From NCBI GenBank assembly GCA_020027205.1, contig JAHRAQ010000014.1, positions 8,548 through 72,547 of the forward strand: DNA of 64,000 nt, read 5' to 3'. The first letter of the stretch is position 1. Each line of letters opens with the position of its first letter. This DNA is from Nitrospirales bacterium. GTDB lineage: Bacteria; Nitrospirota; Nitrospiria; Nitrospirales; UBA8639. Shown piece by piece: positions 16,388 to 61,966 of the stretch. The position numbers were made by a program, and so were the translations under genes. The notes below the pieces were generated by a model. It was not told where the DNA came from. It did no database searches and was given only the letters and a program-made list of their open reading frames with translations.

Positions 16388-16457
16388 GCCGATGCCTTAT
16401 CCCGCCGCCCCGTGAGGCGGCGGTGCCATGACGACCCGACGCGGCCGTGCCCCGCGC

Positions 16458-45471: not shown

Positions 45472-47295
45472 TTACACCTGGCCGCCGGCCTTCCTTCTGT
45501 TCGCCCGCCGGCCCAACACCCAGCCTTCCACAATAATGACTCCCAGCATGATAAACGCCGGATAGATATACGTCGCCGTCGGAATCGGCGGCTCCATCAC
45601 CAGATAGTAAAACGCGGAGACCGCCATCTTGCGACCCACATCCCCATTGTGTCCATCCCAGGCGAAAAAGACCATCGGGATATACTTGCCGCCTTCCAGG
45701 TAGGCCACTTCATCGTAATCGCCCTTGAGCGGCCGCTTCAGAATGACGGTCCACCGTCCGTGTGACCATTCGGCTTTGACGACCTCCACTTCTTCGGCAA
45801 AATCCACCTCGGTGAAATCCTCATCCCAGCCGGTACCTTCATAGACCGCCACGGTACCGTCCGCCGTCCATTTCGTAATATCAACGGGAAACGTTTCGTC
45901 ACCCCAGAAATACCGTGGTTTGCGCGGCGCGGGCAACTCCTGCCACTTGATCGGAAATTGGAACGCAATGCCGTCGTTGTACACCGCATACCGGTTCTGT
46001 TTCGCAGCAATGGATTCTTTATGGAAAGGATCTTTGTCAAACGACGATCCCAAGGGAGTTTGCTCCCGCACCCCGTAATCGTCCAGGTTCACTTCCGTCG
46101 GATCCCAGTCCATTTCCCCTTCCTGCATACTCTTGGTACGGTCGTTCCACCGGAACAAAAACTCAATATGCGTCTCGTTGTACAACGCCTGAACCCACAC
46201 GTCATCAATCCGATTCACAAAATTGCGCGGCTTATGGGTAATTTGCCCGCCCATGGCAATCCACCGCCGCCGGATGAGATTCCACCGCTCATCATCCGCC
46301 TCCGTGGGCAGATCGCCTTCCACGAATTTCGACGGAATCACGAAGTTGCTCTTGGGCTTGTCCGTCAACGGATCAATCGGTAACGCCTCCCCGTCCGCCA
46401 GTTGTTGCGCCGTGTCCCCCGAGACCTGCCCCTCCGGAACGGCAATGTCCATGACACGCTCGCACAACGAATTCACATAATTGGCAATATCCCATCGTTC
46501 ATCCACGCTCGTGTTATCGGCAAACGACGGCATCGGCGTGCCGTTCAACCCCGTTGAGAAGGTGCGAAAAATATTCTCCACGTTGTAGGGGTCCTGCCGA
46601 CTCCCCCGGAAATTCCAGCATTTATGCCAGTCCGCCGGTTGAATGGGAAAGCCCCAGTCATCCTTTAAATTAAACGCATTGCCGTCACCGCGCCCTTCCA
46701 GGCCGTGACATTCGATGCACTTTTTCTCCACCACCAACTCCGACCCCCGCTGGATGGATTCCGACGTTGCGTCTTTCGGGGACAATGACTCCAAATCCAG
46801 CACAAAAAACTCTTCAAACTCTTCATCCTGCCAACTCCTGTCCTCCACCAACTGCGTGGTCACAAACGCCAGCACGTCCCGGCGCTGCTGGTCGGTCAAA
46901 ATCCCCTCCCAGGGCGGCATGGCCGACCCCGGCAACCCATGGCTCACCGTGTCGAACAAATCCACGTCAATCAGCGGCAACTGCCCGCTCGCCGTATGCC
47001 GAATCTTGAACGTCCCGACGTTGAAATTCCGCGGCCTCGGCCACAAGCGCACCGCGCCCGGCCCGTCTCCGGCCCCGTCAACTCCGTGACACCAGACACA
47101 TTTCGTGAAATACACGCGCTTGCCCGCTTCAACGCTTTCCGCCGCGGGCGCCTGCGGCAGTCCCTGCGCGACAAACCCTTCCGGAAGTTCCTCCTGTGCC
47201 CACCCGCTTCCGGTCATACCCGGCCACATGCCCGCCCCCGCAAGCATCCCCCAGCATGCCGCTGTGACGGTGGCGATTTTCATCGTGCGCATCAT
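45472..47295 (-). CDS. Exported diheme cytochrome c fused to an EB_dh/DOMON-like (NxrC/EbdC-type heme-b) domain, C-terminal TM anchor
   Basis: Signal peptide MMRTMKIATVTAACWGMLAGAG; CVWCHG and CIECHG; C-terminal half DDVWVQALYNETHIEFLFRWND...NDGIAFQFP...GRWTVILKRPL...FAWDGHNGDVG resembles the EB_dh family; final hydrophobic helix + RRANRRK. Confidence 0.65.
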   Translation of the reverse strand: MMRTMKIATVTAACWGMLAGAGMWPGMTGSGWAQEELPEGFVAQGLPQAPAAESVEAGKRVYFTKCVWCHGVDGAGDGPGAVRLWPRPRNFNVGTFKIRHTASGQLPLIDVDLFDTVSHGLPGSAMPPWEGILTDQQRRDVLAFVTTQLVEDRSWQDEEFEEFFVLDLESLSPKDATSESIQRGSELVVEKKCIECHGLEGRGDGNAFNLKDDWGFPIQPADWHKCWNFRGSRQDPYNVENIFRTFSTGLNGTPMPSFADNTSVDERWDIANYVNSLCERVMDIAVPEGQVSGDTAQQLADGEALPIDPLTDKPKSNFVIPSKFVEGDLPTEADDERWNLIRRRWIAMGGQITHKPRNFVNRIDDVWVQALYNETHIEFLFRWNDRTKSMQEGEMDWDPTEVNLDDYGVREQTPLGSSFDKDPFHKESIAAKQNRYAVYNDGIAFQFPIKWQELPAPRKPRYFWGDETFPVDITKWTADGTVAVYEGTGWDEDFTEVDFAEEVEVVKAEWSHGRWTVILKRPLKGDYDEVAYLEGGKYIPMVFFAWDGHNGDVGRKMAVSAFYYLVMEPPIPTATYIYPAFIMLGVIIVEGWVLGRRANRRKAGGQV

Positions 47296-47355
47296 TGATT
47301 GTCCCTCTGCGTTACAAGTTCGTCCCCAAAGCCGCCACGGGCCGCCGGTCATGGG

Positions 47356-48321
47356 TTAGTCCCACGTCCGGGGGTAATACCCCGTGTGCCAGTATTCGAA
47401 CATGACCACTTTCCAGATTTCATCCACCGTCAAGTGCTGTTCCCATGGCGGCATCACCGAGGCCCAGGGGAAGCCTTCGCCCGGCAACCCGATGCCCCCC
47501 TTCGAGACGCGCCAGAACACAAACGTCTCCTGCAACTGCGCAATCGTCCCCGCATCCGTGAAATTCGCCGGAATCGGGTTAAACGCATAGGCCCACAACC
47601 CGCGGCCGTTTAAATTATCCCCGTGACAGAAATGGCAATTCTGAAAAAATATCTCCCCGCCTTCCCGCACGTACTTGATGTACCCGTCCGCGTTTGGGTC
47701 CCACGGATTGTAATTCGGATCATTCACGTCCTTCATCAACCGCCCCATGGCCTGCTCCACAATCCGGGCATCGGTGTATCCCTGATCGTAGTCTCCATCC
47801 GCATTGACCCGGTACGGATTTTCCACCACTTGCAACACGAACGTCTTCCCATGCACCTTGGTGGTCGCCGGCGGCGCCGGATGCACCGTCCGCAATTCAA
47901 TGGGTTCTTCAAAACTCGGCAGGAACGAACTGTACGCAAAGCCGCCCAGCGCCAGCGGAATCACGACCAACATGGCCGTGCGAACCGATTGATGAAAGTT
48001 AGTAATCCCGTCCATGACGTTGAGAATGGGACGCTTGAATTCCTGCCATTCCTTCTCGGACCCCGACACCCACATGAAAATCCCGCAGGCGGAGACCGTG
48101 CCGTAAATGGCGCGCACGCTGAAGGGAATGGGCGGATAAATACGGTATTTTAAATACAACTGAATGAACACAAACACGCCCACCCCCGCCCAAAATTTCG
48201 GAATCCCCATCCCGGACCGGTGAAGCGCCCAATTGACCAGGACAAACACCAAAATCGACAACCCCAACTCCGAAATCATCTGCATCGGCATGTAGCCTTC
48301 CACCAATTTCAGCCAAGTCAT
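47356..48321 (-). CDS. Membrane-anchored (about 4 TM) monoheme cytochrome c
   Basis: N-terminal TM helices; single CHFCHG; distal Met region SVMPPWE. Confidence 0.7.
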   Translation of the reverse strand: MTWLKLVEGYMPMQMISELGLSILVFVLVNWALHRSGMGIPKFWAGVGVFVFIQLYLKYRIYPPIPFSVRAIYGTVSACGIFMWVSGSEKEWQEFKRPILNVMDGITNFHQSVRTAMLVVIPLALGGFAYSSFLPSFEEPIELRTVHPAPPATTKVHGKTFVLQVVENPYRVNADGDYDQGYTDARIVEQAMGRLMKDVNDPNYNPWDPNADGYIKYVREGGEIFFQNCHFCHGDNLNGRGLWAYAFNPIPANFTDAGTIAQLQETFVFWRVSKGGIGLPGEGFPWASVMPPWEQHLTVDEIWKVVMFEYWHTGYYPRTWD

Positions 48322-48376
48322 CGTCCCTCTCTCCCGCGTTGCGAAATGACAGAATCCAAGGATTCGTCTTTCATCA

Positions 48377-49693
48377 TCAATTGAACGCTTCCAGCGCCGG
48401 CAACTCCTGCCCCTGCTTCAAACTGGACAGATAATCCACGATTTTATTGACGGCGCCGGCGCTTAATTTCTGCCCGAAATCCTTCGGCATCTGGTTGTCG
48501 GGAAAATCCTGCACCACGTACATGCTGGGATTTAAAATCGACTCCGTGATGTATTCGCGGGTCGACTGTGCGTGGCCCTTGTAAGCCGGATCCTTGAGCC
48601 TTTGCGGCGCATTGCTGCCTTCAAGCAACAGGGGGCCCACTTTTCCGGTGGCGCCTTCAATGCCGGGAATTGTGTGACAGGCGGGACACCCCGCTTTCAT
48701 AAAGAGATCGGTGATCGGCTCCTCTCCGGTGGCCAGCACGCCCCCCGCCGCCGCGTCATCGCCCTCACTCGCCTGTGGCCGGTCCGCCTCGGGAACAAAT
48801 TTCTCATAGGAGACTTCAATTTCATCGTACGTCGGCGCCTCCATCCCCTGGCGCACGTACAACCAAGTGTCCACCGCCGCCAACTCTCCAAGGGTCAGCG
48901 AAATCGGCGGCTTGTGAATTCTGGGCATGGGGCTTTCCGTGTCGTTGGTGCCTTTCACGCCAAATCCCGGCACGACAAAGCAACTCGGACAGGCATGGGA
49001 CTCCGCAATATATTCCTGCCCGTTTGTCGCGGTCCCCGACCCGTCAAACGCCTCTTTCTGAACCGTCGGGCGAGCGGTGGGATTATCCATATAATACAAT
49101 TCGTGCTTCAACCGTTCGTGGCTTCGGTCGGGGATCCCCCAGAGATTCGGCGCGCGTTCACTTAAAAATCCCTGATTGAAGCCATGACACAGGGGGCACT
49201 GGCCTTTCCCGATCGCCCCCTGAACCTTGCTTTGCCCAAGTCCGCCAAAGATGATTTTTTCGCCCTCGTCCGCCAACTGCTGCTGGGTCATGCTTTGGAA
49301 ATCCAGTTTCACTTCCGGCGGCGGGAAGCCGCCCTCGACCTGCGGCAACCAGTTACCGTATCCGGACAACGCGGCCGCCACAAAAAACATGGCCCCCCCG
49401 ATTTTCATGAGGGCCCCGATATTGGTGAAATAGATGCCCATGATGTACGTCAGGCAGGTGATCATGACCAACGACACCGGCAGCAGACGGCTTTCCCCGT
49501 AAAAATTGTTTTTGTAATTCGCAATGGCGATAAAGGCCAGGAAGACACACAACATGCCGATGCCCGTCTTGAAGAGGGCGTTCTTCCTTTGAACCGGGTC
49601 CGTGATGCGGACCTGGCAATACACCAGAAGCCCCGTCAAAAAGGCAAACGCCGGCCATCCAATTGAGATGGCTTCCGTAATGAGTTCACCCAC
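48377..49693 (-). CDS. Membrane-anchored (about 4 TM) diheme cytochrome c
   Basis: CPLCHG and CPACHT motifs; GTG start with GGAGGAGG 4 nt upstream. Confidence 0.7.
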   Translation of the reverse strand: MGELITEAISIGWPAFAFLTGLLVYCQVRITDPVQRKNALFKTGIGMLCVFLAFIAIANYKNNFYGESRLLPVSLVMITCLTYIMGIYFTNIGALMKIGGAMFFVAAALSGYGNWLPQVEGGFPPPEVKLDFQSMTQQQLADEGEKIIFGGLGQSKVQGAIGKGQCPLCHGFNQGFLSERAPNLWGIPDRSHERLKHELYYMDNPTARPTVQKEAFDGSGTATNGQEYIAESHACPSCFVVPGFGVKGTNDTESPMPRIHKPPISLTLGELAAVDTWLYVRQGMEAPTYDEIEVSYEKFVPEADRPQASEGDDAAAGGVLATGEEPITDLFMKAGCPACHTIPGIEGATGKVGPLLLEGSNAPQRLKDPAYKGHAQSTREYITESILNPSMYVVQDFPDNQMPKDFGQKLSAGAVNKIVDYLSSLKQGQELPALEAFN

Positions 49694-49713
49694 CGTCCTC
49701 CTCCAATCACAAA

Positions 49714-49747
49714 GTCACCCCGACCCTGCATTCAAGGTCGGGGTGAC
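49714..49747 (-). other. Intercistronic perfect 12-bp stem-loop (GTCACCCCGACC-10 nt-GGTCGGGGTGAC)
   Basis: Sits between the bd-like gene stop (49786) and the next cytochrome c start (49693). Confidence 0.6.
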
Positions 49748-49785
49748 TTCGCCCTAGTCGGTATCGTTGATGTGCCACGTCACGA

Positions 49786-51750
49786 TCAATAATGGCTTGT
49801 GGCCGGTTGCGGCGCGCCCCCCGGAACAGGCTGCATCGCCGGAACGGGCGCCTTCTTCGCGCCCAGCGCACCCAGCCAGAAGACAAAGAGAATCGTAATC
49901 CAGAAGAACAGCACGTTAAAGGAAATCACATTGGCCCCGAATCCGATGGTATGGGTATAGGCCCAGGGCGAGTTGTCACGCATAATCTCATTGACGTGCC
50001 AAAACAACCTGACCGAAGACCGGATATACCCCATCAATCCCATCATCCACGTAAAGGCCGTGGCCAGCATAATCAGGGCATATTGCGAACGGGGCGCGAT
50101 CTGACCCCACCGAATCGGCCCAAGTTCCCTGGACTGCCTTAACATCGCCAGATTCAACGCCGACCCGATAAAGAGACAGGACAGCGTTCCGGCAACCTGT
50201 GGAATGGAGAGTCCTATTCGCACGTTGGCGGGGATGAAATACCCGTAACAGGCCACCCAGATGTTATTGAGATGGGCCACGACAAAGAACGTGATCAGAA
50301 AAATATTGCCGAACTTCGCCCATTTCACCGCCGGCACCCGATTGCCGCGCTGATACCAGATGAAACTGGCGATCGTGGTCATGATGATCGCGTTAATGCC
50401 GCCGTTCTTCGCGGACATCACGCCATAGTTCCCCAGCACCGGATGCTGCTGACCGCCCATGGCTTTTAACTCGGCCGGCGTCATGACAATGGTGTGAGGC
50501 GTGATAAACACCAGCAGTCCCACCACGAGAATAAACACGAAATACTTGATATATCGCTGGAACCGCTCGCCCCCGGTCATGCGCCCCAGGGCCTGCCAGA
50601 GATAATAGTTCGTCGTCAAAAACAGAATGCCGATCATGGTGGCCTGAATGATAAACAACCAGGCCAGCAACCCGCCCATCAGAGTAATGCCCATCTGCTG
50701 ACGGTAGGCATACACTTCGCGCATGAGCCAGTAGCCGGCAAACGGCAGGGGAATCAAAAAGGCCACGCCGAGCGCCATCGCGATATACCCCATCCAGTCA
50801 TAGTGCGCGCGCTCTTCGTCATTCTTGGCCGACAGAAACCGGTAGGCCGCATAAGCCGCCACCACGCCGCCGCCGAAGGCCATATTTCCGAGAATCCGAT
50901 GCACGTTCAGCGGATTCCAGAGCGCCGTGTGGATGACGTGCCAGATATTCCCCAGATACCGCCCCTGCTCATCCACGCCGGCCGGCGACATCATAAAGCC
51001 GATCCAGGAATTGGCGAGGAACATCAACACCGTCCCGATCACATTCAACACCACCGACATGCTGGCATGGAGCCATTTCAGCATCCCCTCTTTCATCTTG
51101 TCCCATCCATAGTAGTAGATGTAGAGAGTGCCGCTCTCCGCCACGAACATCAGGGCATAGATATGCATGACCGGGCGGAAAATGCTGGACAGATATCCGA
51201 AGAAGGCGGGGTAGAGCGTCAGAAACGTGAAGATCAGAATGCCGCCGAGAATGGCCGTCAGCGAGTACGCCGTCAGGCTGATCTTGATAAAATCATACGC
51301 CAGTTGGTCGTACTTCTTCGCCATGGCCTTGTCTTTCGTGATCAACCCGGCGAATTCAATGCACATACAGAAAATCGGCACGGCCAGAACAAAACTGCCG
51401 TAGTACAGATGCTGCTGATTGGCGACCCAGAGCAGGACACGGCTTTCAAAGTTATAGCGCGGATAAAAGGCTTCCGTGTCCTCCGTTTTCGGCGCCGGCA
51501 TGCCGACGACGGGGCCTTCGGTTTTGTAGTAGACATCTCTCCCGACTTCGACCGGCTCCGCCTCGCCTTCCCCCTCGGCTTCTTGAGCCATCACAACATC
51601 GGGCGGCGGCCCGCCAGTCGCCGACGCGCCCCCCGCGGCCAGAGCCGGCAACGCCGTCAAAATCGGGAGCACCAACATGGCTCCCATCGCAAAGAGACCG
51701 CTGACCGCCAGAATATTTTTCCTGGTCTGTCTACTCATGAGGCGACCCAT
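49786..51750 (-). CDS. Cytochrome bd-like oxidase, CydA-related polytopic protein (paralog 1)
   Basis: QQHLYYGSF, FVAESGTLYIYYYGWDK, KWLH, LWNPLNVHR align by eye with E. coli CydA His19 / Glu99-Glu107 / His126 / His186 regions; long extra C-terminal TM region; AAGGAGG 6 nt upstream of ATG 51750. Confidence 0.8.
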   Translation of the reverse strand: MGRLMSRQTRKNILAVSGLFAMGAMLVLPILTALPALAAGGASATGGPPPDVVMAQEAEGEGEAEPVEVGRDVYYKTEGPVVGMPAPKTEDTEAFYPRYNFESRVLLWVANQQHLYYGSFVLAVPIFCMCIEFAGLITKDKAMAKKYDQLAYDFIKISLTAYSLTAILGGILIFTFLTLYPAFFGYLSSIFRPVMHIYALMFVAESGTLYIYYYGWDKMKEGMLKWLHASMSVVLNVIGTVLMFLANSWIGFMMSPAGVDEQGRYLGNIWHVIHTALWNPLNVHRILGNMAFGGGVVAAYAAYRFLSAKNDEERAHYDWMGYIAMALGVAFLIPLPFAGYWLMREVYAYRQQMGITLMGGLLAWLFIIQATMIGILFLTTNYYLWQALGRMTGGERFQRYIKYFVFILVVGLLVFITPHTIVMTPAELKAMGGQQHPVLGNYGVMSAKNGGINAIIMTTIASFIWYQRGNRVPAVKWAKFGNIFLITFFVVAHLNNIWVACYGYFIPANVRIGLSIPQVAGTLSCLFIGSALNLAMLRQSRELGPIRWGQIAPRSQYALIMLATAFTWMMGLMGYIRSSVRLFWHVNEIMRDNSPWAYTHTIGFGANVISFNVLFFWITILFVFWLGALGAKKAPVPAMQPVPGGAPQPATSHY

Positions 51751-51848: not shown

Positions 51849-51971
51849 TTACCGCAGAATATAGAAATAATCCAGTCCCTGCATATCCATCAGCACCCAG
51901 TCAAGGAACTGAAAGTACGCCACCGCAATCACAATGGAAATCCCGACGTATAAAGCCGTCTGCATCTGCAT
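51849..51971 (-). CDS. Micro-ORF, 40-aa single-TM peptide (MQMQTALYVGISIVIAVAYFQFLDWVLMDMQGLDYFYILR)
   Basis: GGGAGGAG 4 nt upstream of ATG 51971; one hydrophobic helix; immediately upstream of the bd-like gene. Confidence 0.45.
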   Translation of the reverse strand: MQMQTALYVGISIVIAVAYFQFLDWVLMDMQGLDYFYILR

Positions 51972-52009: not shown

Positions 52010-52123
52010 TCAGCAAGGACATTGAATGCCGGCAAACCAGTAGAAAAACCACAGGCCCACGGCACAAGTCACATAAAATATCGCCTTGCCTACCTTGATT
52101 GGAACCGGATCTGATTGGGCCAT
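52010..52123 (-). CDS. Micro-ORF, 37-aa single-TM peptide (MAQSDPVPIKVGKAIFYVTCAVGLWFFYWFAGIQCPC)
   Basis: AAGAGGA 5 nt upstream of ATG 52123; one hydrophobic helix; first ORF after the consensus promoter; below the ORF-track size cut-off. Confidence 0.45.
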   Translation of the reverse strand: MAQSDPVPIKVGKAIFYVTCAVGLWFFYWFAGIQCPC

Positions 52124-52259: not shown

Positions 52260-52288
52260 ATTATAGTGTTGGCCGGGATGGTTGTCAA
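52260..52288 (-). promoter_or_regulatory. Perfect consensus sigma70 promoter TTGACA-N17-TATAAT
   Basis: -35 at 52288-52283 and -10 at 52265-52260 (read on the - strand), in an AT-rich gap ~135 nt upstream of the first micro-ORF. Confidence 0.6.
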
Positions 52289-52365: not shown

Positions 52366-53265
52366 TCAGCCGGGCAGCCCGCCACGGGGCGGCGGTTTCT
52401 TCTGGTCTGACGTCGCACACCGAAAGCCGATGGTTTCATCCCGGAAATCCGGGACCATGAAACTTCTGGCCGTGATTCGCAAATCCGTTCCATAACTCGT
52501 GTAGCCCGCGCCTCGAAGCGTTTTATACCCGCCGCGGTCCGCCACGGTCGCGGGTCGGGAATCATCGGGACGACCAACTTGCTCCCGGTACCAGTCATCC
52601 CCCCATTCCATCAAATTTCCAAAACCGTCATGCACGCCGAACGGGCTTCTGTCCAGGGGAAACGATCCCACGGGAGATGTCGCGTCATATCCATCCTCGC
52701 CGCCTCCCAGGTTCGCCTTGCGGGGTCTGGGAGAATTGCCCCACGGCCACAACCGTCCGTCCAGGCCGCGCATCGCTTTTTCCCATTCGGCTTCCGTGGG
52801 CAACCGGGCCTCTCGCCATCTGCAATAGGCATCCGCGTCGTACCAGGAGACATAGGCCACCGGCTGATTCGGCCCGCGCAACTGGGCCAGCCGTTTGGCA
52901 TATCGTGACGGAGGCCCCGGCTTGCGGTGCCCCGTGGCCTTCACAAATCGCCCGTACTGGTAATTCGTCACCTCATACCGGTCAATCCAAAATCCCGGAA
53001 GGGTGACGAGACGCTCGGGACGTTCATTCAACCCGCCCCGCGTGGTCCCCTGAATGAACGCACCGGGAGGAATCCACACCATGTCTTCCCCCACAAGAGC
53101 CGGCGGGGCGTCGGAGGAAAACACCTGCGTCGCCCGTGGCCGGCCCATGTCCGCGTGGTCTGGGTCGGGCGGCGGCGGCGTGGTCCCGCGAAAAATCCCC
53201 GCCAGCGGCATCCCGACCATAAACAGAATCACGGCCAGCAGAATCAGTTTCAGTCGCCCTTCCAT
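52366..53265 (-). CDS. FGE-sulfatase-domain (SUMF1/NirV/PvdO-like) protein, N-terminal TM anchor, lacks FGE catalytic Cys pair
   Basis: MVWIPPGAFIQG...FWIDRYEVTNYQY...QPVAYVSWYDADAYCRW...RLPTEAEWEKA...FGNLMEWGDD...IGFRCA. Confidence 0.85.
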   Translation of the reverse strand: MEGRLKLILLAVILFMVGMPLAGIFRGTTPPPPDPDHADMGRPRATQVFSSDAPPALVGEDMVWIPPGAFIQGTTRGGLNERPERLVTLPGFWIDRYEVTNYQYGRFVKATGHRKPGPPSRYAKRLAQLRGPNQPVAYVSWYDADAYCRWREARLPTEAEWEKAMRGLDGRLWPWGNSPRPRKANLGGGEDGYDATSPVGSFPLDRSPFGVHDGFGNLMEWGDDWYREQVGRPDDSRPATVADRGGYKTLRGAGYTSYGTDLRITARSFMVPDFRDETIGFRCATSDQKKPPPRGGLPG

Positions 53266-53307
53266 ACCCTCGCCGTCTCACGCCGCACCCGTTCCCCGAC
53301 CACCCCC

Positions 53308-54225
53308 TTACAAGGGCTGGTCGCCGTCCTCAACGGTCCGGGCGCAACGGAATCCTATCGTCGCGTCGGTGCGCCACATCTTGGCCGAAAACCGTTTGGT
53401 CACTCTCGCGTTAAGTTTGGAATCACGCCAGGTGCCCCCTCGGATGACTTTAAATTCCGTGCTGTCCGGCCCGGGAGGATTGAGGAACGGCGCCCGGTGA
53501 TAATAAGACGGGTCATACGTATCCGCCACCCATTCCGCGACGTTCCCCACCATGTCGTAGACCCCGTACGGACTCCGGCCGCCTTCATACGACCCCACGG
53601 GCGACAGATACCGCGCCCCGTCGCCGTCGCCGTCGATGTTGGACACCGTGTCGCTGAACTCATTGCCCCAAGGGTACAGCCGCCGGCCTTCCCCGCGCGC
53701 CGCTTTTTCCCATTCGGCTTCCGTGGGCAGCCGTTTTCCCGCCCAGCGGCAATAGGCAAACGCATCATTCCAGCCGATGCCCACCACGGGAAAATCCGGG
53801 TCCGTGAGGTGGGCGATGTCTTCCTCAAACACCGGTACCTGCGGGGCTTCCCGCTTGGTCATGTTGACAAAACGCTCGTATTCCGACTGCGTTACTTCCT
53901 TGAGATCGACAAAATAGGCCTTGAGATACACGGGATGCGCGGGAGCCTCGTCGGGATCGCCCTGCTCATAGCCCATGGTAAAAGGCCCTTCGGGGATTTC
54001 CACCATCTCCCGCCCCTCATTGCCGGCCATGGTCCGGTACATGGAAAAATCCCGAAGCGCCACCGGCTCAATAATCCGCGGCTCCGCGCGTTGTTCGGAC
54101 CGTGAGACCAGCCGGTCCCGCTCGGTCCGCCCTTTATACGTTTCATAGACCAGCATCACCATCATCAGGATAAACGAGGCAAAAACAAAGATGATGGAGC
54201 CGATCAGGACACCGCGATTTTCCAT
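53308..54225 (-). CDS. FGE-sulfatase-domain (SUMF1/NirV/PvdO-like) protein, N-terminal TM anchor, lacks FGE catalytic Cys pair
   Basis: MVEIPEGPFTMG...YFVDLKEVTQSEY...PVVGIGWNDAFAYCRWAGKRLPTEAEWEKAARG...YDMVGNVAEWVAD...IGFRCA; GGAGG 5 nt upstream of ATG 54225. Confidence 0.85.
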   Translation of the reverse strand: MENRGVLIGSIIFVFASFILMMVMLVYETYKGRTERDRLVSRSEQRAEPRIIEPVALRDFSMYRTMAGNEGREMVEIPEGPFTMGYEQGDPDEAPAHPVYLKAYFVDLKEVTQSEYERFVNMTKREAPQVPVFEEDIAHLTDPDFPVVGIGWNDAFAYCRWAGKRLPTEAEWEKAARGEGRRLYPWGNEFSDTVSNIDGDGDGARYLSPVGSYEGGRSPYGVYDMVGNVAEWVADTYDPSYYHRAPFLNPPGPDSTEFKVIRGGTWRDSKLNARVTKRFSAKMWRTDATIGFRCARTVEDGDQPL

Positions 54226-54308
54226 ACGCCTCCGGCAATCACCCGTTGACGGCCGCGCACACATCGGAGCGCCCGCAGGCCCCCATCGTCACAGCCGCAC
54301 AGGATAAG

Positions 54309-54509
54309 TTACGCGCGTTTGGACAGCAACCCGGCCAGGACAAACGCCGCGACGCCGCCGCACAGTATCGACCCCAGCAACAAATAATACTCCGGATCGC
54401 CATGGTGCACGCCAGATGCAAACCCCCGCAACAAGACGGCGGCCATCACCGTGGCGGCCACCATGACCCCGGACCACAGCAGCCGTGCCGCGTCGCACTT
54501 CTCATTCAT
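54309..54509 (-). CDS. Small 2-TM membrane protein (66 aa)
   Basis: Two hydrophobic helices; 8-nt overlap with the upstream gene; no family recognised. Confidence 0.45.
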
Positions 54510-54912
54510 GGCTATCCCCGCTTTCCCCAAGTACCGGATGATTCCGTGGCGCCGGCATCGCCAGCGTCGGCGGCGGCGCGGAGGGCGTCACACGCGGCCG
54601 CCGGAACCTGTCCATCAACATCGAGATCCATATGCCCAAAAATCCCCCGATGGCCGCCCCGGAACCCGCGCCGACCGTGATATTGCCGGCCCCCGACACC
54701 GCCCAGGCCAAGGCCCCGCCTCCCATCGCCCCGGCCACGATGCCGGCGAAAAACCGGCGGCCTCCAAGCAGCCCGATCCCCATCCCCAGGAGCAACCCCA
54801 TGCCCGTGGCCACGTAGAGAAACGCGCCACCCAGCAATATGCCGATCAGCGCCCCGACCGTCCCCATGACCGCGACGCCCAGCGCCACGTCCGGCACCCA
54901 GGCTTTAACCAT
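54502..54912 (-). CDS. Glycine-zipper-rich membrane protein
   Basis: GxxxG-type runs ([32 protein letters not shown]...[16 protein letters not shown]); GGAGGG 6 nt upstream of ATG 54912. Confidence 0.55.
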
Positions 54913-54947
54913 GGCGGCCCTCCGCGTCACCGGCCGCCGTCCCCGCC

Positions 54948-55589
54948 TCATTCCGCGCTGACTTCAATCGCCCCAAAATCCACTTCCACACCGGGGCCGC
55001 TTTGCAGCGAAATACCCCACGCCATCGGCGCCGGGTCATGCCCGTGAATCTCCCGAAAATCCCGGTAGGCATTGACCTCTTCCTCGACCCACGCCCCCAG
55101 CGGATGCCGGCCCGAACGCACCACCACCTCCGCCGCCCCGAACAACCCGCCGTCCGTGACCGACCCCCGGCGTTTCCGATCACTCCAGACGTATTTGGTG
55201 GACACCGGAATAAACAGCACATCCGTATCCAGATTCGCAAAGACCGCCGCAAAAAACTCCGCGCCCTCCGGGGCCGAATGCAGACGCCACCGCCACCGCA
55301 GCACGGGATGCGTGCGGGGGTTCCATGCAATCCGCCTGGTGTACACCCGCTGATTCGCCCGCGCGCCTTTCAGAAACGCGGCGTCGCCCTCGGTGTGCAC
55401 GGCGTACGCCTCTTTCGCCGTCGCCGTGCTGCGCGACCCTTCCCATCCGCGAGGAAAGCCATCCGCGTCGGGATGACGAAAATCCTCAAGCGCCACGGTC
55501 GGAGCCGCTGGCCCGCCGACCAGCGGCCAGCCGACCACCATCAGCGCCACGGCCCCCGTGAGGAGCAGGCGTCGTCGTCGTCCGTTCAC
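54948..55589 (-). CDS. Exported protein, tentatively DUF3047/concanavalin-like
   Basis: Signal peptide [17 protein letters not shown]; the family call is a weak recollection only; GTG start overlaps the bd-like 2 stop (GTGA). Confidence 0.45.
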
Positions 55590-57493
55590 GCCGACTCCTC
55601 TCGTGACAACGCCCGCGCAAAAGCCACACCGCCGTCGGCGGCGGGTTGATCGGCCTCCGTCATCCGCTCTTGCGCGGACAGCCGGAACAACACAAACACC
55701 GACACCCAGAAGACGGCCATGTTCATGGTCACCATCTTGGCAACAAACGCCAGGTGCGGCGTGAACGCCCAGGGCGACAGATCCGCCAGCACCTCATGCA
55801 CGTGCCAGCCCACCCGCCCGGCGGAGCGAATGTACCCCATCAGCCCCATCACCCAGGAAAACGTCGCCGCCACCCCGAACAACGCCACCATCCCCCGCAC
55901 GGAAATCCCGCCCCATTGCACGGGGCCGCGCCGCTCACTCCCCCTTACCATCAGATGATTGATCAACAATCCGCCCGCCACCACCATCGCCGTCGTCGCA
56001 CTCTGCGGGACGGACAACCCGACCCGAACGTGCGCGGGAAGATAAAATCCATACACCGCGACCCAGATGATATTGCCCATGCCCGCGACAAACAACGCCG
56101 CTATCGCCGCGTTGCCAGCCCGCGCCCAGGGCACCCGGATGATCCGGTTCGCCCGCCCGTACAACAACGCGCTCAACCCCGTCAGACAGACCATCACATT
56201 CATCGCCCCGTTTTTCGCCGACATCACCCCAAACGCCCCGATCACCGGATGCTGCGCCGCCCCCACCGCCTTCATCTCCCCCGCCGTCATCGCCATCGTA
56301 TGCGGCGTCACCCACACCACAAACGCCGCCATCAGCCCCCCGACAATCCATTTGAACCAGGGATGATACCGTCCGCCGTCACGGAACCGCCCAAGCGATT
56401 GCCAGACGTAATAATTGATCCCCAGAAACAACGCCCCCACCGTCGCCGCCTGAATCACAAACGCCCACGACAGCATCCCCCCCATCATCGTCATCCCCAT
56501 CTCCTGACGGAACGTAAAGACGGCGCGCATCAGCCAGTATCCCGCAAACGGCATCGGCACCAGCGCCCCCACCATCACCACCAGAAACACGCAGCCCATC
56601 CAATCGTAGTACGCCCGCGCCTCCCGCCGCCGGGTCTGCAAAAACCGATAGGCCGCGAACGCCACCACCACGGCGCCCCCGGACATCACATCCGCCAGAA
56701 ACCGATGCGCGTTGAGCGGATTCCACAACGGCGAATGCAGCACGTGCCAGACATTCCCCAGAAACTGCCCCTCGGCGTTCACCCCCGCCGGCGCCATCAT
56801 GAACGACGCCCACGCATTCACCAGCAGCAGCAACAGCACCCCCATGCCGTTGACCAGCACCCCGAGCGACAGATGCAGCCATTTCCGGACGCCGGACGCC
56901 AGACCAGCCCAACTGTAGTAATACACCACCAGCAGCAGGGATTCCCCGACGAACACCGAGGCATACACCGGCATCATGCTCTTGAACGTCGCCCCCAGAT
57001 ACCGCATCACATCGGGATACAGCGTCACCAACGCCCCCAGCATCACGCCCCCCAGCCACGCCGTCACCGCCATCGCCAGCACCCCCACCCGCAGCACGTC
57101 CCGGCCCAGCCCATCGAACCGCGCCGCCGCCCGCCCGTCGCGACGCGACAGCCCAATGAATTCGAGCAGCAGCGCAAACAACGGCAGCGCCAGCACAAAG
57201 CCCCCGAAATAGGTATGCTGCTGCGTCACAAACCAGATGACGGTACGGTTATCCAGATACCGCCACTGCGGATACCTCGGCGCCACCGCCGCGGCGGGCA
57301 AACTCTGCGGAACGCCCTCCGTCTGATAATAGACGTCCCGCGTCGACTGCGATGCCGACGCCGCATCCACCCCCGCCGTCGGCGCGCCGGCCACGACACA
57401 GACCCCGCCCAACAGCAGCATCACCACCCCGCGCCGCACCATCCCCATCACGTCCGTCCCCCGATTACAAACGCCGGCAGCCGTCATTCCCAC
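55586..57493 (-). CDS. Cytochrome bd-like oxidase, CydA-related polytopic protein (paralog 2)
   Basis: Same landmarks as paralog 1 (QQHTYFGGF, FVGESLLLVVYYYSW, KWLH, WHVLHSPLWNPLNAHR, TPHT, AQHPVIG, GWHVHEV); start uncertain (57493 GTG, or ATG 57448/57442). Confidence 0.8.
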   Translation of the reverse strand: MGMTAAGVCNRGTDVMGMVRRGVVMLLLGGVCVVAGAPTAGVDAASASQSTRDVYYQTEGVPQSLPAAAVAPRYPQWRYLDNRTVIWFVTQQHTYFGGFVLALPLFALLLEFIGLSRRDGRAAARFDGLGRDVLRVGVLAMAVTAWLGGVMLGALVTLYPDVMRYLGATFKSMMPVYASVFVGESLLLVVYYYSWAGLASGVRKWLHLSLGVLVNGMGVLLLLLVNAWASFMMAPAGVNAEGQFLGNVWHVLHSPLWNPLNAHRFLADVMSGGAVVVAFAAYRFLQTRRREARAYYDWMGCVFLVVMVGALVPMPFAGYWLMRAVFTFRQEMGMTMMGGMLSWAFVIQAATVGALFLGINYYVWQSLGRFRDGGRYHPWFKWIVGGLMAAFVVWVTPHTMAMTAGEMKAVGAAQHPVIGAFGVMSAKNGAMNVMVCLTGLSALLYGRANRIIRVPWARAGNAAIAALFVAGMGNIIWVAVYGFYLPAHVRVGLSVPQSATTAMVVAGGLLINHLMVRGSERRGPVQWGGISVRGMVALFGVAATFSWVMGLMGYIRSAGRVGWHVHEVLADLSPWAFTPHLAFVAKMVTMNMAVFWVSVFVLFRLSAQERMTEADQPAADGGVAFARALSREESA

Positions 57494-57495
57494 AC

Positions 57496-58527
57496 CTACC
57501 CCGACGCCCGCTGCCCCATTTTGGCAAACAGTTCCATCACAAACGGGCAGCGTTTCAACGTTTCCGGCACGATGCCCCGCGTACGCGCTTCAACGTGCAC
57601 CCGCGCCCCCAGCGCATACCCATACCCGGCCGTCATCGCCCCCGTCATCCCGCCCACGAGCAGATGCGCGCCGAACGGCACGCGCTCCCATTGCAACACA
57701 AACAGCACAACGCCCATCTGCGTCGCATAATACGTCAACGCAAACGCCAGACACGGCCACATCCAAAACCGGAACACCTCCCACCATGGCCGGGCCTTGA
57801 GACGGTCGGCGGCAAGGACATGCGGGTATCGACCCGACAAAAAGGCGCCGTGCGCGCCACAGGCCGCCACCACGCACACCGCCGCCGCCAACCCCGCCTC
57901 GCCCCCCGCGCCGTCCCCGCCGAGACCGGACGCCGCCGCCACCGCGCCGCCGGCCGCCAGCCCCGCGCCCGCCCAACCGACCAGCCGCCGCGCGTCACGC
58001 CCGGGCAGACCACGCCACACGCCGCCGTCGGGAAACGTCACCATCCGCCCGCCCTGCGCTTCCAGGCGCACGACGTGCCCGATTTCAAACGCATCGCGCG
58101 TGACCGCCGTGCAGGCAATGATCAATGCCATCATCGCCGGCCCTTCGGGATGCAGGAGAAAATTATAGTCGACAAACAGCGCCAGCAACGCCAAGACCAA
58201 CAGCGACAGTTGCACGCCATAGACACATCCGATCCATCCGCCCACCCACAGGAGACGGCGAACGCCGTCCGTGCGCACGATGCGCGCCGGCGACGCCCGC
58301 CGCCCCATCGCATACGCCCAGTACGCGGTCGGCGTCGCGAGCATCCCGCTCATCGCCAACAACAGCCATGGATCGGAAAGCGGACGCGCGTGAGTCAAGA
58401 TCCGGTAAAGAAGAAACACCACCAGCCCCGGCGCGACCATGACCCAGCGTTTTCGCCGTCGAACGTCGGGGGCCGTGACGGCCGCCTGCAGTTGGGGCAG
58501 CACCCGAAGCGCTAATCGATGCAGCAT
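57496..58527 (-). CDS. Polytopic membrane protein, no recognised family
   Basis: 343 aa, multiple hydrophobic helices plus a Gly/Ala-rich loop; GGGAG 5 nt upstream of ATG 58527. Confidence 0.55.
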   Translation of the reverse strand: MLHRLALRVLPQLQAAVTAPDVRRRKRWVMVAPGLVVFLLYRILTHARPLSDPWLLLAMSGMLATPTAYWAYAMGRRASPARIVRTDGVRRLLWVGGWIGCVYGVQLSLLVLALLALFVDYNFLLHPEGPAMMALIIACTAVTRDAFEIGHVVRLEAQGGRMVTFPDGGVWRGLPGRDARRLVGWAGAGLAAGGAVAAASGLGGDGAGGEAGLAAAVCVVAACGAHGAFLSGRYPHVLAADRLKARPWWEVFRFWMWPCLAFALTYYATQMGVVLFVLQWERVPFGAHLLVGGMTGAMTAGYGYALGARVHVEARTRGIVPETLKRCPFVMELFAKMGQRASG

Positions 58528-58584
58528 CGCACTCCCAGGAGGGCATAACCCGGCGCGTAAAACCGGCGACGAGCGGAGTCCCTG

Positions 58585-58654
58585 CCGTCATTCCGCGCCA
58601 TCGACGCCATTGACGACGCCATTGACCGCAGAACCCCCCGCACGCGGAATCCAT
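58585..58654 (+). repeat. REP-like element, family 2 (copy with a 12-bp internal duplication GACGCCATTGAC)
   Basis: CCGTCATTCCGCGCCATCGACGCCATTGACGACGCCATTGACCGCAGAACC...CGCGGAATCCATCCGAAAGA, compare 25995-26064. Confidence 0.75.
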
Positions 58655-58686
58655 CCGAAAGACGTTTCAATGGCCGGCTCCGAATG

Positions 58687-59163
58687 TCACGCCGGCGCCG
58701 ACAGCCCGAAATACCGCGTCTTGACTTCCTCCATCAGCGCCACCGTCACCTCCGGCATCTCCCGGTCCTGCGCGGTGCGTTCCAGTTCCACGCGGGCCAT
58801 CGCGCGCACCGCGTCGGGAATGCGGGACAACCGGCGCGCCGCGTCGGGATGCCAGGACACCGGGCCGGGCGACCGGGCCTCCGTCATCACCCCCGTCGAA
58901 ATCAGCGTCAGACGCTGCCGACCGGCATACTCTTCCACCTCGTGCCGCACCAGACACGCCGCGTAGGGCGGCAGCCGGTCCAGACGATGTCGCGCCTCGT
59001 CCGTCCAGACCGGATGGTCAAAAAAACGGGACGCCTCCCGGGCGTCCGCCTCAATCCCCACCTGACATCCGCACGTCTGACAGGCGTAACGCAGCAGGGC
59101 GCGCCCCGCCTCCCCTTCTTCGATGAGACGACATTGAAAACCCGACCCGCAGCCGCACGTCAC
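58687..59163 (-). CDS. Cys-rich protein with two PCP_red-like (protochlorophyllide reductase subunit B C-terminal-like) repeats
   Basis: MTCGCGSGFQC...CQTCGC then VWTDEARHRLDRLPPYAACLVRHEVEEYA and VSWHPDAARRLSRIPDAVRAMARVELERTA. Confidence 0.6.
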   Translation of the reverse strand: MTCGCGSGFQCRLIEEGEAGRALLRYACQTCGCQVGIEADAREASRFFDHPVWTDEARHRLDRLPPYAACLVRHEVEEYAGRQRLTLISTGVMTEARSPGPVSWHPDAARRLSRIPDAVRAMARVELERTAQDREMPEVTVALMEEVKTRYFGLSAPA

Positions 59164-59169
59164 CGGGGA

Positions 59170-59886
59170 CTATCCGATTTTTCCGGGATACAGAATATAC
59201 AGCATGGCATACGTCGCGCTGCCGGTGACAAACAGAACGCAATACACCAGGATCGTCACCCGGCCCAGAATCCGGTGACGCCGCGCGCCGTTCGGCCAGA
59301 TACGCTGAATCGCCACCTCCACGCCGAACACCATCGCCAGCAGCGCGACCAGGCCGGCATAGACGCCGAATTTGCCCATGGAAAACCCGGCGGTGACCAC
59401 GCGACCGAGAAACAACAGCAGCACGACGGCGGTCACGCCCCCAAACATCATCCCGATTTTTTTCCGGGTGGTTTGCAGCAGGGCGTCTTGCAGGATGCGC
59501 CGCCCGTTGACAAACATCTGGGAGCGAAACCCCAGGACAATCATATACACCGCCATGATCAACCCAATCACGACCAGAAGAATGTGCGCCGTCAGCAACG
59601 GCACAAACACGGTGTCATACATCCACTGCGACCCGCCGAACCCTTCCTTCCCTTCAAAGGCCAGCACCCCCAGTTGGCGAAACAGATAATAACTCGTGAA
59701 AAACGCGAGCATGGCCGCCATGCCCCCCAGCATCAGCCAGTGATGCCCGGTCCCCTTGCCGCGTTTGGCCTGCACGCCGCCGACAAGAAACAGCACGGTG
59801 AACAACAGCGCCATCGTCTGACTGATGTCGGCCCCCATCGTCGCATGGGTTCCGGCAAATCCCGGGTCCCGCAACCATTCAGCCAT
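59170..59886 (-). CDS. 6-TM membrane protein, DUF420/CtaM-like C-terminus
   Basis: C-terminus RRHRILGRVTILVYCVLFVTGSATYAMLYILYPG resembles the DUF420 signature as I recall it; start moved to MAEWL (59886) because the upstream extension translates a REP-like motif (AFAGMTKE). Confidence 0.5.
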   Translation of the reverse strand: MAEWLRDPGFAGTHATMGADISQTMALLFTVLFLVGGVQAKRGKGTGHHWLMLGGMAAMLAFFTSYYLFRQLGVLAFEGKEGFGGSQWMYDTVFVPLLTAHILLVVIGLIMAVYMIVLGFRSQMFVNGRRILQDALLQTTRKKIGMMFGGVTAVVLLLFLGRVVTAGFSMGKFGVYAGLVALLAMVFGVEVAIQRIWPNGARRHRILGRVTILVYCVLFVTGSATYAMLYILYPGKIG

Positions 59887-60922
59887 GTCCGCCTCCTTTG
59901 TCATGCCGGCGAAGGCCGGACTCCAGTCCGTCAGTTCCCCCTCCCGGTTTAATGCCCTGCACCATCGCCCCCGGCGCAAACTCCGTGACGGATTCAAACC
60001 CGGCCTGCGTCATCCACTCCATGACTTCCCCCGTGGTGAAACATTCTCCCTGTTCCGTGTTCACCAGGATATGCACGGCGAACGCCGTGGTCCAGGCCGG
60101 GCTTGTTCGATCCGGGTCCAGAAACCGGTCTTTGATCAGCAACCGGCCGGCGCCCGTCACATGCGCAAACGCGTTGCGCACCAGCCGTGCGTTGGCCCGG
60201 CGGTTCTGATAATGCAGCACGTCGGACAGGAGCGCCAGATCGTAGGGGCCGCCCCATGCGTCCGTATGAAAGTTCCCGGGCCGCAAGGCAATGCGATCCT
60301 CCAACCCGGCGTCGCGAACATACCGTTCCGTCACCCGCAGCGTTTGCGGAAGATCAAACACGGTGGCCTTGAGATGAGGATAGGCGCGACACAACGCAAT
60401 CGCGTTCGTGCCGACGCCGCCGCCGACGTCCACCATGTGTTCGCGCCCGTTCAGGCGGAGGGACTTCGCCAGACTCATCCCGCTCCCCCGGCCGACGCGG
60501 TCCAACACCGCCAGCACGTTGGCCCCCATGGCCGGATCGTTTTCAAACACATGGCGACGCACGGGCGCCACGCCGGTGCGGACGGTCTCTTCCAACTTGC
60601 CCCAGTTCGCCCATTCCGAATCGTGCAGCGCCAGAAGGTGGCCGACGTAGTCCGGACTGGTGTTCACCAGATGTTTCCGGGCGACGCCGGTATTCGCGAC
60701 AAGGCCCTCCCGTTTTGTCAAGACACGCATCGCGACCAGGGCGTTGACGAGCAGCGTCAACGCCCGTTCATCGAGAGACAACCGCCGGGCCAGGCCGGCG
60801 GGAGAATCGCCGTGGCCGTCCAGGGCCGAAAAAATGTCCAGTTTCACCGCCGTCAGGAGAATTTTCGTCTCCCAGTAATACCCCATCTGAAAAATTTCGG
60901 CGAGCGACAGATCCCGAGACAC
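59879..60922 (-). CDS. SAM-dependent O-methyltransferase (Methyltransf_2/COMT-like with N-terminal dimerisation-type domain)
   Basis: MVDVGGGVGTNAIAL SAM-binding motif, ATVFDLPQ, LLSDVLHY; GTG start at 60922. Confidence 0.75.
   Translation of the reverse strand: MSRDLSLAEIFQMGYYWETKILLTAVKLDIFSALDGHGDSPAGLARRLSLDERALTLLVNALVAMRVLTKREGLVANTGVARKHLVNTSPDYVGHLLALHDSEWANWGKLEETVRTGVAPVRRHVFENDPAMGANVLAVLDRVGRGSGMSLAKSLRLNGREHMVDVGGGVGTNAIALCRAYPHLKATVFDLPQTLRVTERYVRDAGLEDRIALRPGNFHTDAWGGPYDLALLSDVLHYQNRRANARLVRNAFAHVTGAGRLLIKDRFLDPDRTSPAWTTAFAVHILVNTEQGECFTTGEVMEWMTQAGFESVTEFAPGAMVQGIKPGGGTDGLESGLRRHDKGGGHG
59898..59932 (+). repeat. REP-like motif variant (GTCATGCCGGCgaaGGCCGGACTCC)
   Basis: Short hairpin GCCGGC/GGCCGG with GTCAT left flank, inside the 3' end of the methyltransferase ORF. 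Confidence 0.4.
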
Positions 60923-61025
60923 GGCATATCCTTCGCAGGATCAATGCGGGAAACCAGGGTCGATTCAGGAGGTGATGGTAACGGGACGGATTCTGCGAAC
61001 GCAAGGCGGGGGAGGCCCACGAAAC

Positions 61026-61063
61026 GGAACGGGCGGCAATGGCCCGCCATTGCCGCCCGTTCC
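61026..61063 (-). terminator. Strong 17-bp perfect hairpin (GGAACGGGCGGCAATGG-cccg-CCATTGCCGCCCGTTCC), terminator-like
   Basis: 33 nt downstream of the stop at 61096; only a weak U-tract (GTTTCG) follows on the - strand. Confidence 0.5.
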
Positions 61064-61095
61064 GCGGTCTTCACAACGACGCGGTCTCCGGCTCG

Positions 61096-61890
61096 TTACA
61101 TCTTGAACTTGTTCTTCTTTTTGATATCGAAGTTGACGTTCACGGTCGAGCCGTCCTTGACTTCCACGTCCATCGTCACGTTCCCGGCCACCGGATGCCA
61201 GGCCAGCACCTTGTGTTTGCCGGCGGGGACATCGGCGATTTCAAACGACCCGTCACCGCCCGACACGCCGAAATGGCCGTTGCTCACGGGCAAAAACCAT
61301 GCCTGCATAAACTCATGCTGGTCACATTGCAACCGGAGCACCGAACCTTTTCTGGCCATGCGCATCTTGATTTTCTTGTCCAGTTTGTCGCCCTTTTTGG
61401 CCAAACCGATGTTGAACAAGGTCGAGGATTTCGCCCCCAGCACGTCAAAACTGTGCGGGTTGTGCAAGACCCCTTCTTTGGACTTCGGATCACTGGCATC
61501 CGCGTCGGTATTCTCCACAATGAAGTTCCCTTTGTTCACCAACACGCCGGTAAAGGGCAGGAACTCGCACAACTTGGCGATCACCTTGGGCGTCTGCTGA
61601 AAGCCCTTGTCCTTAATCCCCCGCACGGACACGATGGCGTTTTTGAGACCTTTGCCCGCGCCCACTTCGACTTCTTTCAGCAACCGCGTGTCGTCGCCTT
61701 TTTTGCTGGGATTCTGCTTGCAGAACTCCGGATTGGGAAATTTGGAAAAGGCAAACTCTTTCGGCGGAATGGATTTGCCGGAATACGTGATTTTGCCTTT
61801 AATGGTCCCGCCGGCCTGAACCATCAGGGGCATGGCCGCCAGCATTCCGCCAAAAACCATGGACAGCATGAGCAATGGACGATTCCTCAT
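61096..61890 (-). CDS. Exported cupredoxin-like protein with C-terminal carboxypeptidase-regulatory-like beta domain
   Basis: Signal peptide; LHNPH ... CDQHEFM (C-x2-H-x2-M, type-1-copper-like spacing); GSFEIADVPAGKHKVLAWHP; GGAGG RBS before ATG 61890. Confidence 0.5.
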   Translation of the reverse strand: MRNRPLLMLSMVFGGMLAAMPLMVQAGGTIKGKITYSGKSIPPKEFAFSKFPNPEFCKQNPSKKGDDTRLLKEVEVGAGKGLKNAIVSVRGIKDKGFQQTPKVIAKLCEFLPFTGVLVNKGNFIVENTDADASDPKSKEGVLHNPHSFDVLGAKSSTLFNIGLAKKGDKLDKKIKMRMARKGSVLRLQCDQHEFMQAWFLPVSNGHFGVSGGDGSFEIADVPAGKHKVLAWHPVAGNVTMDVEVKDGSTVNVNFDIKKKNKFKM

Positions 61891-61938
61891 CTTCTCTCCT
61901 CCCTTAAAATGACCTTCAAATCCGAACAAGTGCCACCT

Positions 61939-61966
61939 TGTATAACAACGCGCTTGCGAGTGTCAA
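61939..61966 (-). promoter_or_regulatory. Sigma70-type promoter TTGACA-N16-TATACA
   Basis: -35 at 61966-61961, -10 at 61944-61939 (- strand), ~50 nt upstream of ATG 61890. Confidence 0.5.

Follow-up and report, generated by a model that had tools for sequence, protein, structure and literature searches.

Among the known systems closest to the genes analyzed here is the OR-N family of the cytochrome bd superfamily, whose published classification covers electron donors and partners encoded in the same operon, PetABD for example (Murali, Gennis & Hemp 2021). In Nitrospira moscoviensis, bd-like_3 lies in a highly transcribed cluster together with two cytochromes c (cyt c) and alt_NxrC_2 (Mundinger et al. 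2019, PMC6606698), and every Nitrospira genome has its duplicate, bd-like_4, at a distance of "a few genes" (PMC6606698; Lucker et al. 2013, PMC3578206). Nitrospira and their relatives are the main nitrite oxidizers of soils, oceans, and wastewater plants, and a conventional terminal oxidase of the heme-copper type is missing from most of them. The assembly of their bd-like enzymes, the cofactors these carry, and the electron donors they use have been in question since 2010. Here, we report on a 64,000-nucleotide (nt) stretch of a Nitrospirales bacterium (GCA_020027205.1, contig JAHRAQ010000014.1, positions 8,548 to 72,547 of the forward strand), hereafter the window, in which a bd-like gene (F) is embedded in a gene set designated A to K (positions 52366 to 61966) and followed downstream by the operon of a first bd-like paralog (L-M-N-O). 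This type of cluster is already known; what is new is the undescribed accessory set within it. No paper linking FGE, DUF420, or DUF3047 proteins to bd-like genes was found in the literature searched, and to this extent the remark of an earlier note on this DNA, that its author was not aware of a description of the association, stands. It does not extend to the cupredoxin-like and zinc-finger proteins of the bd-like_3/bd-like_4 cluster, which have been mentioned previously (PMC3578206).

All window features described below lie on the minus strand, and their coordinates are window positions. Genes A to K form an unbroken run without a single CxxCH motif, the stop codon of F overlaps the start codon of G (GTGA), and a Pfam scan detected two FGE-sulfatase proteins, DUF420, two PCP_red repeats, DUF3047, Methyltransf_2, and Cyt_bd_oxida_I, all above the Pfam cut-offs. 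In these respects, and in all sequence motifs that it quoted, the earlier note agrees with our results.

The second bd-like paralog, F (55586..57493, ~14 transmembrane [TM] helices), and the first, L (49786-51750), are 46% identical over their full length. Cyt_bd_oxida_I (PF01654) matched only the N-terminal half of each protein (E value of 2e-14 for F and 7e-20 for L), and in F the CydA profile aligned over positions 4-249 of 418. The equivalents of His19, Glu99, and His186 were located by alignment to 9r2g_A and were invariant among orthologs (H93, E184, and H263 in F; H125, E216, and H295 in L). Both proteins therefore possess the O2-reduction core with the His and Glu equivalents that defines subunit I of the cytochrome bd superfamily. 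Neither a Q-loop or quinol-site match in the profile nor a CydB gene, as expected of a canonical quinol oxidase (qOR), was found. F retains H93, E184, H207, H250, H253, H263, H398, H415, and H564, each the counterpart of a residue conserved in L. As every conserved His and the Glu99 equivalent are kept, F is probably a functional, heme-binding paralog rather than a degenerate partner. Since the arrangement of L-M-N-O plus F matches that of the published N. moscoviensis cluster, L most likely corresponds to bd-like_3 and F to bd-like_4.

The gene order A-B-C-D-E-F-G-H-J-K-L-M-N-O was recovered by tblastn of all window proteins in ~60 of 67 Nitrospirales loci, wherever the contig was long enough, representing ~60 species-level genomes. 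Hence, the neighborhood is not unique to this genome. The order of the block persisted at 41-55% protein identity (F of the genus Nitrospira was 54-59% identical), and F and L were always neighbors. Spacing across the loci was tight for B-C (~4 nt), C-D (11 nt), E-F (6 nt), F-G (0 nt), and G-H (0 nt), with larger gaps between A and B (~174 nt), D and E (~104 nt), and K and L (~560 nt). The flanks were variable: P differed among loci, and U was present only in the marine/sponge clade and was not at that position in the genus Nitrospira. These observations bear on the possibility that the accessory genes serve other processes, such as small-molecule methylation or periplasmic protein handling, and that their position reflects phylogenetic inertia. 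The block has so far been seen in one order only, and B, G, J, and K come from broad families with diverse or unknown roles, as this explanation would have it. However, order and near-zero spacing survived the observed divergence while the flanks changed, and the block genes for which values exist were similarly expressed (see below), which makes mere neighborhood improbable.

The distribution of the block beyond Nitrospirales was addressed with more distant bd-like genes. A full HMMER search with F returned 710 relatives, the best distant full-length matches being at most 41% identical. F relatives in the locus collection came from Nitrospirales genomes only, and when Nitrospina or anammox orthologs were sought with a profile of 14 distant bd-like proteins, Nitrospirales proteins alone were obtained. 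Representatives of the HMMER search, few of them with a taxonomic label, served as outgroup loci and were inspected over ~10 kb on each side. All outgroup bd-like genes were closer to L than to F. Profile hidden Markov models of B, C, E, G, H, J, and K, built from Nitrospirales orthologs, detected nothing in nine outgroup or paralog bd-like loci, and the supposition that the accessory set accompanies bd-like genes in general was not upheld. As ~60 species keep the gene order and the nine distant bd-like loci lack the set, B to K is a Nitrospirales-specific block tied to bd-like_4.

Stand-alone bd-like genes were found at four of these loci: L069 (cluster labels Nitrospira sp. and Manganitrophaceae), L071, L076, and L077 (its 90%-identity cluster has a protein of Nitrospira tepida among its members). 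The bd-like paralog of L077 (positions 10001-11950) adjoins a GAF/sigma-54 activator with no accessory families nearby, and such a bare paralog points to an accessory set specific to bd-like_4. The bd-like gene of L075 is of the Rieske/cytochrome b type, L073 and L074 contain clusters of a bd-like gene, two cyt c genes, and a cyt c/EB_dh gene, and L072 contains a double bd-like cluster. Only two relatives of the window proteins were found at outgroup loci, namely, an A-like protein at L073 (E value of 3e-13, HN...CNVHAEM) and a D-like Usp-PCP_red protein at L072. The latter, a 545-amino-acid (aa) fusion, is encoded on a metagenome contig (positions 5936-11899) between genes for two bd-like proteins, an alternative-NxrC-like protein, and cyt c, which extends the link of PCP_red to bd-like/alternative NxrC clusters beyond Nitrospirales. 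At L073 (positions 3376-9371), the A-like gene lies directly upstream of the L-type bd-like gene, followed by two cyt c genes and a cyt c/EB_dh gene, with no B-K block at the locus; genes for a UbiE-like methyltransferase and a PEMT-like protein are located further upstream. This layout is presumed to be the ancestral arrangement without the bd-like_4 block. The simplest history would be an ancestral unit of A plus L-M-N-O, into which block B-K, including the duplicate F, was inserted in Nitrospirales.

The earlier note had read A to E and G to K differently, as a module that may serve the maturation of the bd-like oxidases, the abundant bd-like_3 among them, through assembly, cofactor modification, or copper delivery. 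Outgroup L-type genes with cyt c and alternative NxrC genes occur without B, C, E, G, H, J, and K, and an L-type enzyme can therefore do without these seven genes in its vicinity, which argues against this reading.

Transcript ranks available for N. moscoviensis (supplement of PMC6606698) cover eight genes in one species under one growth condition. Four of these genes are named there (alt_NxrC_2, bd-like_3, bd-like_4, and a family-2 O-methyltransferase), and the others were matched by gene length, order, and annotation. The most highly transcribed were NITMOv2_3640 (alt_NxrC_2, corresponding to O; rank 17), NITMOv2_3655 (798 nt, exported, presumed A; rank 20), and NITMOv2_3643 (bd-like_3, L; rank 37). 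The remaining genes were NITMOv2_3652 (495 nt, presumed D; rank 471), NITMOv2_3647 (915 nt, presumed K or J; rank 539), NITMOv2_3654 (the family-2 O-methyltransferase, B; rank 668), NITMOv2_3651 (1071 nt, membrane, presumed E; rank 788), and NITMOv2_3650 (bd-like_4, F; rank 921). Normalized expression of these block genes was ~10-fold below that of bd-like_3, the alternative NxrC gene, and the A-like gene. With regard to co-expression, suggested earlier as a check of the association, the five block genes with values (assigned to B, D, E, F, and either J or K) were transcribed at similar, moderate levels. Because the two expression levels are ~10-fold apart, A groups with bd-like_3 and B-K with bd-like_4. 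Assembly factors are often expressed below structural genes, and the ~10-fold lower level of the block would suit a maturation module, but bd-like_4 itself lies inside the block and is transcribed at the level of the block.

The operon L-M-N-O (45472..51750) encodes, besides bd-like paralog 1, two membrane cyt c and a cyt c/EB_dh alternative NxrC; M, N, and O contain one or two CxxCH motifs apiece, combined in O with an EB_dh (NxrC-like) domain. A sigma-70 promoter matching the consensus at 12/12 positions (TTGACA-17-TATAAT, 52260..52288) is located in the gap between K and L. The promoter, including its near-invariant spacer (TTGACAACCATxCCGGCCAAxACTATAAT), was kept in 52/52 Nitrospirales loci, and the spacer may hide a regulator site. 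As this conserved promoter lies in the K-L gap, L-M-N-O forms its own transcription unit, set apart from block B-K. The leader of ~500 nt encodes two single-TM peptides with good Shine-Dalgarno sequences: small open reading frame (sORF) sORF-a (52010..52123; 37 aa), with an invariant QCPC end, and sORF-b (51849..51971; 40 aa), in which LMDxQGLDY(F/W)Y is invariant. Both are present in ~55 Nitrospirales loci (55 for sORF-b), were not detected in the outgroup loci, and are possible candidates for CydX-like small subunits. No discussion of either was found in the literature examined.

Two paralogs that are constant neighbors could also form a single enzyme, in which F would be the non-catalytic partner of L in one CydAA'-type complex and the products of the intervening genes would be extra subunits. 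Such a pairing would accord with the "a/b" scheme of paralogs put forward for OR-N enzymes. Murali et al. propose co-association of adjacent paralogous cydA genes, and CydAA' pairing has been suggested in the literature for Nitrospirales OR-N1/OR-N2. However, the transcripts of the two genes differ ~10-fold (rank 37 versus 921), a separate conserved promoter and leader precede L, F shows no degeneration at any of the conserved His and Glu residues, and in outgroups L-type genes are found that have no second paralog. A heterodimer of F and L is therefore quite improbable.

The exported protein A (61096..61890; 264 aa) consists of a cupredoxin-like domain and a C-terminal CarboxypepD_reg-like beta-sandwich. 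The residues H143-N-P-H146 and C189-x2-H192-x2-M195 were invariant in 36 A orthologs, and the type-1 copper ligand set (His...Cys-x2-His-x2-Met) is present in both A and the outgroup homolog L073_246. In Foldseek searches with the AlphaFold2 (AF2) model, the domain weakly matched amicyanin, plastocyanin, and CuA (probability of 0.84-0.98, E values of 0.02-0.1), the predicted local distance difference test score (pLDDT) of this part of the model being 65-75; the CarboxypepD_reg-like match of the C-terminal domain was clear. The description of A as cupredoxin-like is thus backed by the ligand pattern and the weak fold matches, although A had no Pfam match and no sequence match in PDB. Its proposed role in copper delivery was set aside in favor of that of an electron carrier: on the basis of the adjacency of an A-like gene to the bd-like gene at L073 and the expression rank of 20 of its presumed N. 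moscoviensis counterpart, compared to 471-921 for the block, A was assigned to the bd-like_3 electron-transfer unit and not to the accessory block. The abundance of this cupredoxin-like protein and its connection to the bd-like_3 unit also weigh against the maturation module. Weak A paralogs (25-36% identity) were observed further upstream in many loci, beyond the region corresponding to the window.

J (53308..54225) and K (52366..53265) are membrane-anchored proteins with a complete FGE fold (FGE-sulfatase, PF03781; E values of 2.5e-58 and 1.2e-54). As had been noted from the sequence, the catalytic Cys pair is missing: J aligned to human FGE (2aft/1y1e) has no Cys at the positions of C336 and C341, no Cys is conserved in this segment across 56-57 J/K orthologs, and the only invariant Cys residues are C172/C307 and C148/C283, respectively. 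The same pair provides exactly the copper ligands of human FGE, and a copper role of J and K derived from FGE membership, one of the three pieces of background on which the proposed copper-delivery module was based, was therefore rejected. The best equivalog similarities in NCBIfam were to GldK, EgtB, SenA, and PvdO, all far below the cut-offs. By analogy to PorK/GldK and PvdO-type family members, J and K are most likely non-catalytic accessory or binding subunits with a putative location at the outer face of the membrane.

Upstream of the bd-like_4 gene, B, C, and D form a tightly spaced trio. B (59879..60922) is a cytoplasmic S-adenosylmethionine-dependent family-2 small-molecule methyltransferase (Methyltransf_2 plus Dimerisation, E value of 1.4e-20), in agreement with its original annotation as an O-methyltransferase, and its nearest PDB relatives in a profile search were generic family-2 O-methyltransferases. 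Assignment as a BchU/CrtF-type tetrapyrrole or carotenoid methyltransferase was discarded (TIGR02716, 65.8 bits versus a cut-off of 276 bits). C (59170..59886), which starts 4 nt past the stop of B, is a 6-TM protein that had been described as DUF420/CtaM-like at its C terminus. The family holds, but the domain is complete and is split by an insertion of ~2 TM helices rather than confined to the C terminus: DUF420 matched the whole protein over profile positions 4-101 (E value of 4e-15, 56.7 bits), the C-terminal fragment alone covered positions 83-130, and the protein with the insertion spliced out covered positions 4-130 (67.6 bits, E value of 1.7e-18). Among orthologs, H51, H85, H86, H138, and H241 were invariant, and the conserved alignment begins at MAEWLR. 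D (58687..59163) is cytoplasmic, with a zinc-ribbon-like N terminus (CxC...CxxC; C3, C5, C28, and C31 invariant among orthologs) and two PCP_red repeats (PF08369, E value of 1e-18), which bears out its description as a Cys-rich tandem PCP_red protein. Both repeats matched the C-terminal domain of BchB (residues 468-523) and the stand-alone domains 2kru and 2l09 in a profile search.

Experimental support exists for CtaM/DUF420 as an oxidase-biogenesis factor: it is required for active aa3/caa3 heme-copper oxidases and has been proposed to be a copper exporter (PMC13344008), a function known only from the genetics of Bacillus and Staphylococcus. A similarity of DUF420 to one half of heme A synthase has also been described (PMC8239418). 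The presence of C consequently favors a maturation function. Among the families on which the copper argument was built, DUF420 is the only one with a precedent in oxidase biogenesis. Since B is distantly BchU-like, C is related to half of heme A synthase, and D combines a zinc ribbon with two repeats of PCP_red, a protochlorophyllide-capping domain, one might speculate that the task of B-C-D is the synthesis or insertion of a modified tetrapyrrole in the bd-like oxidases, with E, sORF-a, and the FGE-fold proteins completing a dedicated metallocenter assembly line. We regard this as highly improbable; if true, the heme or chlorin of the Nitrospira bd-like oxidases would be of a kind not known before.

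The membrane protein E (57496..58527; 343 aa) and H had no match to a Pfam family. E has ~1000 homologs, and every named one is from Nitrospirales or Nitrospirae. Its AF2 model (pLDDT of 83.6, predicted template modeling score [pTM] of 0.81) has ~8 helices and showed no fold match among PDB chains with Foldseek (best E value of 0.38), and a profile search of E against PDB sequences was empty. In view of its length and its CydA-like neighbor, E was considered as a divergent CydB; this was rejected, as the structures without a match included those of cytochrome bd. Judging from the model, E apparently represents a membrane fold not described before, so far found only in sequences labeled Nitrospirales or Nitrospirae. 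Two motifs, H126-P-x-G-P-x-M-M and C327-P-F-x-M331, are invariant. Motifs such as these and the terminal CPC of sORF-a are typical of Cu(I) handling, which would be in keeping with a copper-related maturation module, but the motifs of E are suggestive only.

G (54948..55589) is a signal-anchored periplasmic DUF3047 protein (PF11249, E value of 3e-14, 53.5 bits versus a cut-off of 27) for which a profile search against PDB sequences found no solved relative. H (54502..54912; 136 aa as called) is a 3-TM glycine-zipper membrane protein kept in ~60 loci. Between H and J, the window contains a stretch of ~240 nt that is missing from the other loci examined, where the H-J gap amounts to tens of nt. 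This stretch holds I (54309..54509), a 66-aa ORF with two TM helices. The ORF is present as had been listed, but its membership in the block was not supported: no comparable ORF was found between H and J in the other loci examined, and I was rejected as a conserved small subunit and is probably not part of the system. I weakly resembles the glycine-zipper segment of H and may be a local partial duplication of it.

Our best reading of these data, to which we assign a probability of roughly 0.45, is that the block encodes, besides a small biogenesis trio (B-C-D), another bd-like complex of low abundance made up of E-F-G-H and perhaps J and K. The bd-like_4 block would have been inserted between the halves of an older unit, with the cupredoxin-like A on one side and bd-like_3, two cyt c, and the alternative NxrC on the other. 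The translationally coupled E, F, G, and H would form a second bd-like membrane complex without c-type cytochrome subunits, which J and K may join as non-catalytic accessory or binding subunits at the outer membrane face. Of all its parts, the tightly coupled B-C-D trio is the likeliest to help insert cofactors or metals into the bd-like enzymes.

Several points weigh against this interpretation. Dedicated assembly factors would explain the coupling and synteny just as well as subunits do. The genes J and K are set off by short gaps (~40 nt), and their products may have a periplasmic substrate that has nothing to do with the oxidase. Furthermore, B resembles natural-product methyltransferases without a link to respiration. 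The expression data come from a single species and condition and lack G, H, and one FGE gene, and no more than nine outgroup loci were compared, each over ~10 kb to either side. The maturation and copper-delivery module of the earlier note retains the DUF420 precedent and a real, conserved association, but its FGE-copper and cupredoxin supports fail, and as a whole we consider it unlikely.

With a second bd-like complex plus biogenesis trio as the preferred reading, an ancient core (cupredoxin-like protein, bd-like_3, two cyt c, and alternative NxrC), along with two overlooked small membrane peptides encoded behind an invariant strong promoter, can be told apart from a lineage-specific bd-like_4 block. 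The latter comprises seven conserved proteins of unknown role, one with a predicted fold unmatched in PDB. The outcome is a concrete list of candidate subunits and biogenesis factors for the bd-like oxidases.

Other genes of the window were also inspected. U (62021-63808), upstream of A, encodes a DUF255/thioredoxin-like protein with an N-terminal CHACH motif. A sigma-54-dependent response regulator paired with a dCache/PAS histidine kinase is encoded at 33769-37592. Early tetrapyrrole genes are located at 13875-18680, at a distance of ~35 kb from the block, and comprise hemA (its product, GlutR, is extended considerably at the N terminus), hemC, and a cobA/hemD fusion; a housekeeping role without any link to the block is probable. 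No heme-copper oxidase genes were found within the 64-kb window.

Among known systems, CtaM of Bacillus and Staphylococcus, which functions in aa3/caa3 biogenesis, resembles C in the full DUF420 domain and in the proximity to a respiratory oxidase gene; C differs in its ~2-TM insertion and in being next to a bd-type rather than a heme-copper oxidase. J and K share the complete FGE-sulfatase fold of SUMF1 and its non-catalytic relatives (PvdO, PorK/GldK, and the EgtB C-domain), but they lack the catalytic Cys pair of the former and are anchored by an N-terminal TM helix. Compared to canonical CydAB(X), F and L have ~14 TM helices instead of 9, no CydB, and no Q-loop match, while the CydA N-terminal half with the His19, Glu99, and His186 equivalents is present in both, and the single-TM small peptides beside L recall CydX-type subunits. 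As far as published, the arrangement of L-M-N-O and F matches that of the bd-like_3/bd-like_4 cluster, in which B, C, D, E, G, H, J, and K were listed merely as "conserved proteins of unknown function." Likewise, the accessory set of this block is missing from the published description of the OR-N family (Murali, Gennis & Hemp 2021), whereas the two bd-like proteins themselves agree with that family in the missing quinol site, the ~14 helices, the occurrence mostly in Nitrospirota, and the formation of paralog pairs by duplication.

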